In this document: in pieces, positions 45,858 through 50,036 of the stretch | Position numbering within the stretch: the stretch's first letter is position 1 | How the letters are laid out: every line of letters begins with the position of its first letter | Sequence record: PZ583739.1 | Source: a phage | Length of the DNA stretch: 64,000 bases | Reading direction: 5' to 3' (one strand) | Translations under genes and position numbers: made by a program | Notes under the pieces: generated by a model | Told to the model about the DNA's origin: nothing | Database searches by the model: none | What the model saw: only the letters and a program-made list of their open reading frames with translations

Positions 45858-47690
45858 TTATAGCGTCGCATTCATCCAGTCTTTACGCTGCTGGGAATCT
45901 TTACCGAATAGCATTTCGAACAGTTCTTTCCAATTGTCGGGCAATTGAACAACTTCGAATACTGGCTCGAGCAATACGCGTTTGTACTCTGAATCTTCCA
46001 GAGAACCAAGCCCCTTGATATATCGAATGGTATGCTTCGGAAGTTTATCCTTAGCTTCTTCGTAATCAGGAAGAGAATAGAACCATTCTTGTTTATCTTT
46101 GAGCTGTGCAATAATAACAGGAGTTTTCACAAAGCGAATTCGTCCTTCATGGAACAGCTCTGGCCAGTTACTGAAAAACGCCAATAACGATGGATAGATA
46201 CTACCAACACCATCCACATCCGCATCTGTCATGATAGCAATGTTTCGGTAATTCATATTCTCGGCCGGTTGTCCAATCGTTAAACCAGTAATCGCACACA
46301 CATCAAAGGCTTCAGCGTTCTTCATAACTTCAACAGCTTTCAGACCCCATGTGTTTTTAAACTTACCACGTAACGGATAAGCACCTTGCAATTCACGGTC
46401 ACGAACCTTGATAAACGGACCCGTTGCAGAATCTCCTTCGGTCAGGAATAGAGTCGTTTCCAGCTTATCATTACCCCATTCGTTGGCTTTGATATGCTTT
46501 TGTACCTTGGCCTTTGAAGCTTTCTTATTTGCTTTAGTCTCTGCTGCTTTCTCTGCAGCCAATTTACGAGCCAATGCAGCTTCAATGATAGGCGTCAGAA
46601 TAGCTTCTGATTTTAACAACGAACCAGCTAACTTTTTGCCATCAACCTGGATATGTGATTTAATTTCACCGGCAGGTGAAGTCAATCGCTCCTTAGTCTG
46701 GGAATCAAATCGCATGTTCTTCATATTGCGAATAAACATCAACAATGTAATACATTCTTTAACGCGTGCTTTGGTTACTTCAATTTTATACTTGCGTTTA
46801 ATCGCCGGGATTAACACATCACACATTTCATCCATAACACATTCAATATGGTGACCACCATTTTTTGTATGGATTCCGTTAACATAAGTCACATGACGGA
46901 AACCATCGGGTGACCGACCAATTGCAATTGAGCAATTATCTTGTTCCTGAATAATGATTTCATCATCGTATTGCTTGGCATATTTTTTAAAGTGACCTTG
47001 CACTTTTTTACCATTGAACTTGAATTCGATATCCGGATAAATGACTGCAAGAGTCTGGATTTGGTCAAGCATAATTTGGACATATGTTTCGTCAAAACCA
47101 GACGTTTCAAAATTCGAAAAATCCGGAATAAATTTAACTTTAGTTCCTTGCAACTTTGATGGTTTTGATTTCCATGAAATATTATCAAGTCCATTTGAAC
47201 AATTAACGGTTAATTCATTTTTCCCATCTGATGTAGTGCCTGTGAACAATATTGAAAAAATATTGGTAAGACTGGACCCAACTCCGTTCATCCCAGTGGT
47301 AACACGATTTGCATCATCACTAAAGTTTCCACCCGAACGAACCTTGGTCCATGCAGCGACCGGCCCAGGAATTTCTTCGCCTTCTGGGGTTACAACAATC
47401 GCCTGTGGAATGCCTCGACCATTATCTTCAACGGTCACTTCGTTTGTTTTGATATCAATATTCAATGAAATTTTGTTTGCAAATTTAAAATTGGTGCGAA
47501 TAGCTTCATCAATAGAGTTATTTGCAATTTCTTCGATTAATTTAATTAAACCTGGAACGTATTGAACCTTTTTATATTCACCAAACAGAAAAATTTCTTT
47601 GTCTTCATTGGTAACACTACCGATGTACATTGATGGGCGAGCTTTTACGTGAGCTACATCAGAAAGGATTTGAATTTCATTCTTAATCAT
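45858..47690 (-). CDS. 39: DNA topoisomerase II large subunit (fused gene 39+60 equivalent, GyrB-like)
   Basis: 610-aa continuous ORF; ATPase motifs ...EDNGRGIP..., TOPRIM ...TLFLTEGDSA..., C-terminus continues through the region that is gene 60 in T4. Confidence 0.9.
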   Translation of the reverse strand: MIKNEIQILSDVAHVKARPSMYIGSVTNEDKEIFLFGEYKKVQYVPGLIKLIEEIANNSIDEAIRTNFKFANKISLNIDIKTNEVTVEDNGRGIPQAIVVTPEGEEIPGPVAAWTKVRSGGNFSDDANRVTTGMNGVGSSLTNIFSILFTGTTSDGKNELTVNCSNGLDNISWKSKPSKLQGTKVKFIPDFSNFETSGFDETYVQIMLDQIQTLAVIYPDIEFKFNGKKVQGHFKKYAKQYDDEIIIQEQDNCSIAIGRSPDGFRHVTYVNGIHTKNGGHHIECVMDEMCDVLIPAIKRKYKIEVTKARVKECITLLMFIRNMKNMRFDSQTKERLTSPAGEIKSHIQVDGKKLAGSLLKSEAILTPIIEAALARKLAAEKAAETKANKKASKAKVQKHIKANEWGNDKLETTLFLTEGDSATGPFIKVRDRELQGAYPLRGKFKNTWGLKAVEVMKNAEAFDVCAITGLTIGQPAENMNYRNIAIMTDADVDGVGSIYPSLLAFFSNWPELFHEGRIRFVKTPVIIAQLKDKQEWFYSLPDYEEAKDKLPKHTIRYIKGLGSLEDSEYKRVLLEPVFEVVQLPDNWKELFEMLFGKDSQQRKDWMNATL

Positions 47691-48483
47691 TTTTGACCTC
47701 TAAATTTTTAGTATAACCTAAACATTTCCAACTGGACCATTTTACATCATCGGAATTGCAGCGTTTTCGTAATGTAGGATAACTAATACCAAGAACTTCG
47801 GCGGCTTCTTTTCGGGTTGTGAATATGACCCCATTTATAGAGTACGTTTTAGCCTCGGGATTTTTATCACCAGAGAATAATTTTGATAATTTATCTTTGT
47901 GTTCAAGAGAAAGATGTTTGCCAAAGAAATGATGATTTTCGCCTGCTTTACGCAGGGAGACATTATAACCAAAATCATCGGGGTATGGCTTTCTTTTAAC
48001 ACCAGTTCCATATATTCTATTATATTCGGTTTTATCTAACAGTTTATTCCGTTTTTTAACGGCTTCGCCTTTAAGTAAATTAATTTCCGCTTTTCTTGGA
48101 TGATTGGACATTGTGTCACCACCAAAATCCGCCAACGTTATATTATAACCGTTTTTGATAGAATTTAATTCAGTTATCCAGAAACTTTCTCTTTTCAAGA
48201 AATATTTTTTATTATAAACTTCTATATTTTCTATTAGTTTGCATACAAATGATTCTTTACCGTATTTGTCATATGCAAACTGTAAATGGCTGTTTATGCC
48301 AACACCTTTGGATAAATTCCGAAAATGCGTGGCAATTCTACGATGAAAATCATTTGAACTTCCTATATAATATTTTTGAGATATTAAATTATAAATTATA
48401 TAAATCCCACTATTTCCACTCGATGGTGGAATATAATCAGGAAATTTATTTTTTATTATCCCGAATACTTCATTAATCATCAT
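47683..48483 (-). CDS. free-standing GIY-YIG homing endonuclease (mobile element)
   Basis: 266 aa; N-terminal GIYIIYNLISQKYYIGSS...R...N; basic linker with repeated motifs and C-terminal helix-turn-helix-like ...TTRKEAAEVLGISYPTLRKR; stop overlaps gene 39 start by 8 nt. Confidence 0.8.
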   Translation of the reverse strand: MMINEVFGIIKNKFPDYIPPSSGNSGIYIIYNLISQKYYIGSSNDFHRRIATHFRNLSKGVGINSHLQFAYDKYGKESFVCKLIENIEVYNKKYFLKRESFWITELNSIKNGYNITLADFGGDTMSNHPRKAEINLLKGEAVKKRNKLLDKTEYNRIYGTGVKRKPYPDDFGYNVSLRKAGENHHFFGKHLSLEHKDKLSKLFSGDKNPEAKTYSINGVIFTTRKEAAEVLGISYPTLRKRCNSDDVKWSSWKCLGYTKNLEVKND

Positions 48484-48528
48484 CTTTCCTCTTGTGTATG
48501 GAGGTATTATAAGTCACATGTTTTAAAG

Positions 48529-48546
48529 CAAAAAGGCCCGAAGGCC
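48529..48546 (-). terminator. rho-independent terminator upstream of the homing endonuclease gene
   Basis: GGCC-cgaa-GGCC with flanking A/T runs, between the 48549 gene and the HEG start. Confidence 0.5.
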
Positions 48547-48548
48547 TT

Positions 48549-48947
48549 TTATTTGAATCGAAGCTGCTCTAACATTTTAATAGCTTGTAGACGGCCGGCT
48601 TCAGTTTTAACCGTAATAATAACATCGCCGCCAGTAACAACGATATCCTCTTTTGATTCCTGTTCGGTTATTTCAGAATCACATTCCGGGACTTCTTCAA
48701 AATATTTAAATTCATCACCAAAAATAAGACCGGTTCCATTACGACTATGGAAAGAAAATCCAGTTCCATCGATAGTACTAAATTCCGTAACAACATTTGC
48801 TTCCATCTTAGTGACTGAAAACTCTTTGGTAGTAACCAAATCAATGATAGAGGTTCCCTGTTGGTTCAAAATGCTACCAGGCATACCAACATGTTTAAGG
48901 AAGCCATCTAAATCTTTAATGTGATAACTCTTTCCAATTTTAAACAT
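48549..48947 (-). CDS. hypothetical protein
   Basis: 132-aa ORF. Confidence 0.5.
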   Translation of the reverse strand: MFKIGKSYHIKDLDGFLKHVGMPGSILNQQGTSIIDLVTTKEFSVTKMEANVVTEFSTIDGTGFSFHSRNGTGLIFGDEFKYFEEVPECDSEITEQESKEDIVVTGGDVIITVKTEAGRLQAIKMLEQLRFK

Positions 48948-48954
48948 AATATCC

Positions 48955-49215
48955 TCATTCGAATCGGATGGTTGAATTCTTAAACAGCAATCCAGAACAA
49001 ACAGTTCCTTTAACTTTCTTACCAGTTGGCCCTACGGCCGTAAAGCCTGTGTGTTGGAAATCATCTTCAGAGCAACCCAACCAGTTATAACCGGTGATTT
49101 GGATTTGTTCATAGCCGTTTGCATCTAATACACGAATGGCATTATCTGCATCAGTACAACTAGCCAATGAAACCGCCAGTACCAGTGCTGCAATAGAACG
49201 ATTAATGTATTTCAT
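48955..49215 (-). CDS. small lipoprotein
   Basis: 86 aa; signal peptide with lipobox LASC; several Cys in mature part. Confidence 0.5.
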   Translation of the reverse strand: MKYINRSIAALVLAVSLASCTDADNAIRVLDANGYEQIQITGYNWLGCSEDDFQHTGFTAVGPTGKKVKGTVCSGLLFKNSTIRFE

Positions 49216-49221
49216 ATATCC

Positions 49222-49395
49222 TCACTTCAAAAGGTCGTAAAAACCGCCATTAACATGTTTAGGAGCCGAGACTAACCGAACAGCCAGCCGATGGCAATCA
49301 GGACAAACATCATTATCTCTTTCAGAGATTTTCTTGATTTTTTCGTATTCTTTCGCGCAGTCATTGGATTGACATTTGTAATCATAAAGTGGCAT
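49222..49395 (-). CDS. small zinc-ribbon protein (57 aa), not in ORF track
   Basis: MPLYDYKCQSNDCAKEYE...CPDCHRL: paired CxxC motifs; its TGA stop sits in the lipoprotein gene SD. Confidence 0.4.
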   Translation of the reverse strand: MPLYDYKCQSNDCAKEYEKIKKISERDNDVCPDCHRLAVRLVSAPKHVNGGFYDLLK

Positions 49396-49396
49396 G

Positions 49397-49771
49397 TTAT
49401 TCCTTAAAGTGTGCTTTCAACATCTGGTAAACGGTCCAGGCTTCAGAGTTATTAGAAATGGTGATTTTAGTCAAAGGGAATTCGCTTGGTTCAAATGCTT
49501 CATCAGCGTCTTCGCATTCATCTTCAGTATCGTCATCTTTTTCTTCTTCAAAGAAACGACGCTCATCTTCCTTTATGAATATTCTCTCTATTCCACCGGT
49601 CGAAAATTCTATCCGATATACATCACCACCTTCAATTCCGACTGGTCTAAATCCTTCACCATTGATTATAGCATCAGCTATATTATCATTATCAGAGCAT
49701 AACAAACGAAATCTGCTTTCAGCAACATTATCTTTAAAATAATACCATTTATCAGTTTCAAATTTCAACAT
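49397..49771 (-). CDS. hypothetical protein with strongly acidic segment
   Basis: 124 aa from ATG 49771 (SD AAGGAGA); contains EDERRFFEEEKDDDTEDECEDADEAFEPSE. Confidence 0.45.
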   Translation of the reverse strand: MLKFETDKWYYFKDNVAESRFRLLCSDNDNIADAIINGEGFRPVGIEGGDVYRIEFSTGGIERIFIKEDERRFFEEEKDDDTEDECEDADEAFEPSEFPLTKITISNNSEAWTVYQMLKAHFKE

Positions 49772-49988: not shown

Positions 49989-50036
49989 AATATTCTCCTC
50001 ATTGATAGGGTAATTTTACCCTATCATTTTTATAAT

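Follow-up and report, generated by a model that had tools for sequence, protein, structure and literature searches.

Genes 39.2 and 39.1 of an SP18-like T-even phage: an ortholog of the T4 GroEL modulator NwgI and a predicted disulfide-bonded lipoprotein

In phage T4, gene 39.2 encodes a 58-residue protein, NwgI, which, as genetics and biochemistry have shown, acts on the equilibrium between open and closed GroEL in favour of the open form, to which GroES or the phage cochaperonin binds. T4 with a deletion of 39.2 grows on ordinary hosts, but is completely blocked on specific groEL mutants (PMC4396842, PMC5153855). Both statements are taken from the summaries that these two papers give of the work of Ang and Georgopoulos (2012, Genetics 190:989).

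For the product of the neighbouring gene 39.1, no experiment or published function was found in the searchable literature, and its nearest described counterparts are envelope proteins of other families. Llp of T5 and Cor of phi80, T1 and N15 are small phage lipoproteins (about 60–80 residues in mature form), which gp39.1 resembles in size, in early expression (going by T4) and in its predicted position at the inner face of the outer membrane; in addition, gp39.1 carries a predicted disulfide. In contrast to these proteins, gp39.1 does not co-vary with receptor specificity, and its family spans very different hosts. A second point of comparison is provided by Spackle (Sp, gp61.3) and Imm of T4, which are early, non-essential and envelope-located, and which act after adsorption whatever the receptor, a role that is also possible for gp39.1. 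However, Sp is helical and soluble in the periplasm and Imm resides in the inner membrane, unlike the predicted lipoprotein gp39.1, and the scan of gp39.1 against the PHROG families returned only phrog_902.

Here, we analysed a stretch of 64,000 nucleotides of phage DNA (the window), in which a zinc-ribbon gene and a lipoprotein gene lie side by side. With a probability of roughly three in four for the reading as a whole, including the roles proposed below, the two genes are Gaprivervirus orthologs of T4 early genes, which are functionally independent and expressed from one polycistronic early mRNA.

Locus and gene layout

A megablast search with 1.6 kb around the pair gave 93–97% identity to SP18, DK-13, UPEC01 and related phages. 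The source phage of the window is a Gaprivervirus, i.e. an SP18-like T-even phage of the Straboviridae. The features of the locus are as follows, with the basis of each assignment in brackets.

49397–49771, minus strand: ortholog of goF, directly upstream of 39.2 (SP18 annotation; phrog_622 and goF phrogs)
49222–49395, minus strand: ortholog of gene 39.2, a 57-residue zinc-ribbon protein of the Zn_ribbon_8 / FmdB CxxC_CxxC_SSSS family (ORF, PF09723, TIGR02605, T4 identity)
49357–49374, minus strand: first zinc knuckle of gp39.2, C8-x4-C13, CQSNDC (translation)
49294–49305, minus strand: second zinc knuckle of gp39.2, C31-x2-C34, CPDC (translation)
49219–49224, minus strand: TGAGGA, the stop codon of 39.2 fused with the Shine-Dalgarno sequence of 39.1, in a junction with 6 intergenic nucleotides (sequence)
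48955–49215, minus strand: ortholog of gene 39.1, an 86-residue lipoprotein precursor (ORF, phrog_902, T4 identity)
49156–49215, minus strand: signal peptide of gp39.1 with lipobox L17-A18-S19-C20, lipobox codons at 49156–49167 (PS00013)
48958–49155, minus strand: mature 66-residue domain of gp39.1, predicted to be periplasmic (AF2 model and family alignment)
48549–48947, minus strand: goF-like paralog (RB69ORF005c-like), directly downstream of 39.1 (phrog_622, E 2e-17; SP18, T6 and T2 annotations)
48506–48530, minus strand: MotA-box middle-promoter-like site, TGCTTTAAAACATGTGACTTATAAT (pattern search)

The arrangement described by the initial annotation, a 57-residue ORF at 49222–49395 followed 6 nt later on the minus strand by an 86-residue lipoprotein ORF, is borne out by the sequence. 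In the annotation of SP18 the same two ORFs are named gp39.2 and gp39.1, and they stand there in the order motB, cef, goF, 39.2, 39.1, RB69ORF005c-like ORF, 39. The corresponding order in T4 is goF-39.2-39.1-39. Because the encoded proteins share 96% and 77% identity, respectively, with their T4 counterparts and the synteny is shared as well, the two ORFs are orthologs of T4 genes 39.2 and 39.1. Both genes were thus already known, as catalogued T4 genes in their usual, densely packed place in the early region.

Both ORFs are real genes and a chance origin is excluded, because the dN/dS ratios against the T4 orthologs are low (0.043 for 39.2 and 0.054 for 39.1, corresponding to strong purifying selection), tblastn retrieved homologs in 873 (39.2) and 1065 (39.1) phage records, and the gp39.1 protein of T4 has been detected by proteomics. 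In the same T4 omics data, the RNAs of 39.1 and 39.2 are both early. In the T4 reference record NC_000866.4, differences from newer T4 sequence records truncate both genes, and gp39.1 appears there as a shortened product of 65 residues which lacks the lipobox.

Along the string motB-cef-goF-39.2-39.1, genes overlap or adjoin closely, and the stop codon of goF lies 1 nt ahead of the 39.2 ATG. The junction between 39.2 and 39.1 reads ...AAG TGA GGATAT ATG..., in which the TGA belongs to TGAGGA and stands 6 nt before the ATG, as the initial annotation had noted when it placed the upstream stop codon inside the Shine-Dalgarno sequence of the lipoprotein gene. A junction of the form TGAGGATAT(T)ATG also links 39.1 to the next ORF (48948–48957). 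The "mini-operon" that had been proposed holds in so far as both genes point the same way and lie close together. It does not hold as a dedicated two-gene unit, because the neighbouring genes are packed or overlapping as well and the junction motif recurs after 39.1; 39.2-39.1 forms one stretch within a long early transcription unit.

The MotA-box pattern has 11 matches in the window, compared with 3.2 expected. The site at 48506–48530, the one noteworthy promoter-like element, lies downstream of the pair, ahead of an endonuclease gene and gene 39, and 39.2 and 39.1 were therefore assigned to the transcription unit upstream of this site. Around the pair, sigma-70-like and terminator-like matches occurred at chance level, and a scan against Rfam gave no RNA element matches.

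The zinc-ribbon protein gp39.2

The gp39.2 of the source phage consists of 57 residues, MPLYDYKCQSNDCAKEYEKIKKISERDNDVCPDCHRLAVRLVSAPKHVNGGFYDLLK, with four cysteines in two knuckles, C8-x4-C13 and C31-x2-C34. In the alignment, C8, C13 and C34 are invariant, and C31 is kept in all T-even sequences. The protein scores 44.3 bits against Pfam PF09723, Zn_ribbon_8 (cut-off 34.4, E 1.8e-11), and 45.6 bits against NCBIfam TIGR02605 (cut-off 31.3, E 5.5e-12). By both curated profile cut-offs it is a member of the zinc-ribbon family, and zinc binding is predicted. With the Zn_ribbon_8/FmdB family, gp39.2 shares the two cysteine knuckles and the N-terminal M-P-x-Y-x-Y-x-C motif, but its first knuckle is Cx4C instead of CxxC and the serine-rich tail is missing. 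Of the CxxC...CxxC zinc ribbon originally described for this ORF, the family assignment and the second knuckle (CPDC) are thereby retained, whereas the first knuckle (CQSNDC) has a wider spacing.

Alignment with NwgI of T4 showed that 55 of the 57 residues are identical (96%). The two proteins share all four cysteines and the opening MPLYDYKC, and both genes follow directly on goF, an order that is common to the source phage, T4, T2, T6 and SP18. They differ in length (57 residues compared with 58, the terminal Gly being absent from the source-phage copy) and at two positions, K11N and T28N. On account of this identity and the identical synteny, gp39.2 of the source phage is almost certainly functionally equivalent to NwgI, as far as sequence comparison can indicate. 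Many databases label the relatives of gp39.2 as "FmdB-like transcriptional regulator". This is an inherited family label which comes with no evidence of regulation, and the "regulator" name finds no support in T4 gp39.2, the sole phage member of the family that has been studied experimentally.

The lipoprotein gp39.1

The gp39.1 of the source phage begins MKYINRSIAALVLAVSLASC. As lipobox criterion we used [LVI][ASTVI][GAS]C following a hydrophobic stretch and a basic n-region, with the Cys at position 15–35. The residues L17-A18-S19-C20 match PROSITE PS00013, with the Cys at position 20 and with K2 and R6 in the n-region, so that this signal-peptide check agrees with the lipobox LASC of the initial annotation. 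The +2 residue is Thr, and sorting to the outer membrane is therefore predicted by the E. coli +2 rule. Combined, gp39.1 is a lipoprotein-type exported protein, for which lipidation and an outer-membrane location are predicted.

Compared with gp39.1 of T4, 66 of 86 residues are identical over the full length (77%). The profile phrog_902 (function unknown) matches residues 1–86 of the source-phage protein with an E value of 5.5e-36. Lipobox position, the two cysteines, the C-terminus and the synteny are all shared with T4 gp39.1 and PHROG 902, and nothing of substance sets the source-phage protein apart from them. In a profile search of 1.84 billion representatives, the family comprised 2293 clusters (50% identity) at E≤1e-3 and 1127 at E≤1e-10; among the 150 matches listed, nearly all are 80–130 residues long and carry the gp39.1 domain at the extreme C-terminus. 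Homologs are found in phages of Klebsiella, Serratia, Stenotrophomonas and Agrobacterium, and also in prophage or phage-like regions of Pandoraea, Achromobacter and Flagellimonas. The genes in Pandoraea and Achromobacter lie downstream of a CI-like S24 repressor, i.e. in prophage early regions, and the one in Pandoraea adjoins RdgC. A scan of bacterial genomes gave only four loci with a homolog, of which those examined are prophages or phage-like regions; hence there is no host counterpart that could lend gp39.1 a function.

The core lipobox pattern is present in 178 of 219 family members (81%), and the members outside this group either have a near-lipobox or are anchored by a hydrophobic N-terminal segment that stays uncleaved. 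Since one of these three elements was seen in the members examined, the domain appears to be always tethered or exported. The Pfam model LPAM_1 matches 14 of 66 members. For the minority with a transmembrane-helix anchor, the inner membrane would be the expected location, and this makes the case for the outer-membrane face less clear-cut.

Of 242 family sequences, 234 have Cys at both of the positions that correspond to C48 and C73, and most of the exceptions lose both residues. Positions 74 and 81 form a second pair, with Cys at both places in 26 sequences; none of the 12 commonest pair types listed has a single Cys. This covariation of cysteine pairs indicates disulfide bonds (C48-C73 in gp39.1), and in turn an oxidising compartment, in line with a periplasmic location. 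In the AF2 model of the mature protein (pLDDT 90.6), one helix is packed on a four-stranded sheet, and the last strand lies within the folded sheet, leaving no free tail.

Across 66 diverse members, 11 alignment columns are invariant, and the invariant charged residues are D52, K79 and R84. The most conserved stretch of the protein is the C-terminus, where KNSTIRF(E) is near-invariant: in 192 of 209 members the chain stops at an aromatic or hydrophobic residue or one residue past it, and in 144 of 209 one extra, often charged, residue follows the Phe. T4 and T2 have identical mature domains, and that of T6 departs from them at one residue.

Searches for a characterised relative gave the following results. 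A Foldseek comparison of the gp39.1 model with the PDB yielded no significant match (best E 1.2 to 2.4), a profile search of the PDB gave nothing below E 1.6, and among viral structure models gp39.1 matched only its own relatives. Pfam returned no family at E≤1 for gp39.1 alone, and only the lipid-attachment-site model recurred when all 66 aligned members were scanned. No informative match was obtained in the NCBIfam and PADLOC scans.

Relation of the two genes and candidate roles of gp39.1

T2 and T6 carry an RB69ORF005c-like ORF of 318–372 nt between 39.2 and 39.1; in the source phage and SP18 this ORF is placed after 39.1. Among 72 loci with a 39.1 homolog, a T4-type zinc ribbon lies within 3 kb in 26, all of them T4-like, and is absent from the other 46. 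Neighbour clustering over the 72 loci detected no other recurrent partner outside the T4-like synteny. Generic Cys-knuckle ORFs were found upstream in 7 of the 46 loci (6 distinct), which, estimated from a background of 11 in 841 ORFs, is about the rate expected by chance. If 39.2 and 39.1 were a true functional pair, for example with gp39.2/GroEL aiding the export or folding of gp39.1 or with both proteins as subunits of one system, this would account for their tight translational coupling. It would also fit their adjacency, with a gap of 2–6 nt, in SP18-like phages, T4 and many other T-even phages, as well as the case of T4-like Klebsiella phages, in which a diverged zinc ribbon precedes the lipoprotein gene by about 90 nt. 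However, such a pair is hardly credible when set against the ORF that intervenes in T2 and T6, the 46 loci that lack the zinc ribbon and the different predicted compartments of the proteins (cytoplasm for gp39.2, periplasm for gp39.1). Moreover, Klebsiella dominates the 39.1 matches (249 records) but is outside the ten commonest organism names for 39.2, and the identical junction motif joins 39.1 to the next, unrelated ORF. Because of the intervening ORF, the loci without a zinc ribbon and the separate compartments, the pairing is lineage-specific synteny: the two genes are neighbours by descent, functionally independent, and do not form a module.

The localisation and architecture of gp39.1 are well supported, and its role was considered against this background. 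A small, early-expressed, predicted outer-membrane lipoprotein recalls T5 Llp and phi80/T1 Cor, and the initial annotation had proposed that the lipoprotein masks a receptor and that the zinc ribbon may be a co-expressed regulator, the latter in keeping with the database label discussed above. Neither suggestion finds favour with the data. The zinc ribbon is nearly identical to a GroEL modulator, and gp39.1 has no sequence-profile or fold similarity to known exclusion lipoprotein families or solved structures in Pfam, PHROGs, PADLOC, the PDB or Foldseek. T4 uses OmpC/LPS as receptor, T2 uses FadL/OmpF and T6 uses Tsx, but the mature domain is the same to within one residue in all three and thus does not vary with receptor usage; the domain is also conserved in phages of unrelated Gram-negative genera. 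Receptor masking is unlikely for these two reasons, and the combined proposal of a Cor/Llp-type factor, which masks the outer-membrane receptor of the phage, with a co-expressed transcriptional regulator is quite improbable. Near-invariance across receptors and distant hosts makes a broadly conserved envelope partner most likely, and binding of such a component is more likely than masking of a particular receptor. We therefore tentatively prefer early envelope protection or post-adsorption exclusion as the role of gp39.1, although the odds for this reading are well below even. As far as is known, Imm and Sp are responsible for essentially all T-even superinfection exclusion, which argues against a major exclusion role of gp39.1, at least towards T-even phages.

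The main rival to envelope protection or exclusion is the inhibition of a conserved periplasmic host enzyme, by which gp39.1 would stabilise the envelope or tune the timing of lysis with no part in exclusion; a peptidoglycan hydrolase or lytic transglycosylase, a protease (DegP, Prc) and endonuclease I are candidate targets. The compact, disulfide-stapled helix-on-sheet domain resembles many proteinaceous inhibitors in size and shape, and the invariant charged residues, the occurrence of the family across Gram-negative phages regardless of receptor and the existence of both lipid- and helix-anchored variants, which suits a soluble periplasmic target, agree with this idea. However, the fold matches none of Ivy, MliC/PliC and ecotin, and the gene neighbourhoods offer no target candidate, so that enzyme inhibition seems possible but doubtful. 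A different route would be for the C-terminus to disturb outer-membrane protein biogenesis or envelope-stress sensing by docking to BamA, BamD or a PDZ protease (DegS). The C-terminal β-signal of outer-membrane proteins has the form G-x-x-hydrophobic-x-aromatic, which the ending K-[N/G]-S-T-I-R-F seems to resemble. This ending belongs to the most conserved part of the family, and the very short tether together with the predicted inner-face location would place gp39.1 beside BAM. On the other hand, the modelled last strand is part of the sheet instead of a free tail, and the extra residue after the Phe in 144 of 209 members should weaken recognition of a free C-terminal Phe. Docking of this kind is very improbable. 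A spanin role for 39.1 was considered and rejected, since its RNA is early and no inner-membrane partner gene is adjacent; the T4 spanins are PseT.3 and PseT.2, which also counts against it.

Under the reading we prefer, 39.2 and 39.1 would be translated from one polycistronic early mRNA of the non-essential motB-cef-goF-39.2-39.1-(39) region. In the cytoplasm, gp39.2 would bind or modulate host GroEL and shift it to the open conformation that accepts GroES or gp31, as shown in T4 and expected here from the 96% identity; this effect may safeguard the folding of phage proteins on sub-optimal hosts. gp39.1, as its sequence suggests, would be exported via Sec, lipidated at Cys20 and sorted, by virtue of Thr at +2, to the inner leaflet of the outer membrane, where the mature 66-residue domain, stapled by C48-C73, would be held on a very short tether. 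There the domain may engage a periplasmic or outer-membrane component that is widely conserved, and in this way shield or re-programme the host envelope soon after infection begins. Post-adsorption exclusion, resistance to lysis from without and the inhibition of an enzyme in the periplasm are examples of what such an action might be.

The finding itself is ordinary. It corrects the inherited "FmdB-like transcriptional regulator" label, given that the studied T4 ortholog is a GroEL modulator, and it presents gp39.1 as an exported, disulfide-bonded lipoprotein (predicted), a character that was hidden in NC_000866.4 by truncation. The remaining interest lies in gp39.1, which is widespread, expressed and structurally without a solved match. 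Its family is among the larger uncharacterised phage envelope protein families and is easily open to T4 genetics; its target, once found, could reveal a receptor-independent manipulation of the Gram-negative envelope by phages. A broader version, in which the family members are widespread periplasmic effectors that target a universally conserved Gram-negative envelope machine, e.g. BAM or a PDZ protease via the β-signal-like C-terminus, is improbable. If it were true, T-even, jumbo and some temperate phages would share a receptor-independent early re-programming or sealing of the host envelope.

Paralogs and an endonuclease gene around 39.2-39.1

In the window, the zinc-ribbon gene 39.2 and the lipoprotein gene 39.1 are flanked on each side by a goF-like paralog, and further genes and candidate regulatory elements are situated nearby:

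48549-48947, minus strand: goF-like paralog, phrog_622
49397-49771, minus strand: goF-like paralog, phrog_622
47683-48483, minus strand: GIY-YIG/group I intron-type homing endonuclease gene, 266 aa (TIGR01453, E 4.8e-29)
48506-48530, minus strand: MotA-box middle-promoter-like sequence TGCTTTAAAACATGTGACTTATAAT, located 5' of the endonuclease gene and of gene 39
50003-50026, motB-cef intergenic space: perfect palindrome with a 10-bp stem, TGATAGGGTAATTTTACCCTATCA, followed by a T-run

The location of the shorter of the two goF-like genes, the RB69ORF005c-like paralog, depends on the lineage. In the window and SP18 it lies 3' of 39.1; T2 and T6 carry it between the zinc-ribbon and lipoprotein genes, and T4 lacks it. 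The endonuclease gene has the middle-promoter-like site on one side and gene 39 on the other, overlapping the start of gene 39 by 8 nt. At the equivalent position SP18 carries no endonuclease gene, and the flanking genes are just 65 nt apart. The alignment to most close relatives begins only at window position 48472 and continues onward from there.

Across the whole window, the MotA-box pattern was matched 11 times compared with 3.2 expected, with all but one of these matches (10/11) on the minus strand. The TGATAGGGTAATTTTACCCTATCA palindrome with its T-run looks like a terminator on the plus strand, and the motB and cef genes lie on the minus strand.

Relatives of both genes in other phages and prophages

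Klebsiella T4-like phages, represented by phage Roth79 (comparison locus L004, 2194-2704), have a diverged zinc ribbon near the 39.1 homolog, with an annotated 29-aa ORF in between. In this zinc ribbon, CxxC is followed by Cx4C, so that the knuckle spacing is swapped compared with T4. Lipoprotein genes of the 39.1 family are also present in temperate prophages:

L008, 1853-6680: Pandoraea morbifera prophage locus
L010, 2822-5252: Achromobacter veterisilvae prophage locus

In both, a repressor gene of the CI-like HTH/S24 type is found 1-3 kb upstream of the lipoprotein gene and in the same orientation; the Pandoraea lipoprotein gene adjoins rdgC.

Annotation of 39.1 and 39.2 in the T4 reference

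The T4 RefSeq record NC_000866.4 (L011, 199-640) differs from the newer T4 record MT984581.1 (L003, 2322-2761) by several substitutions and single-base indels. As a result, both genes are annotated in shortened form in NC_000866.4: 39.2 with 45 instead of 58 aa, and 39.1 with 65 instead of 86 aa, lacking the signal peptide and lipobox Cys. This shortened annotation in the classical T4 reference probably explains why gp39.1 has rarely been recognized as a lipoprotein.
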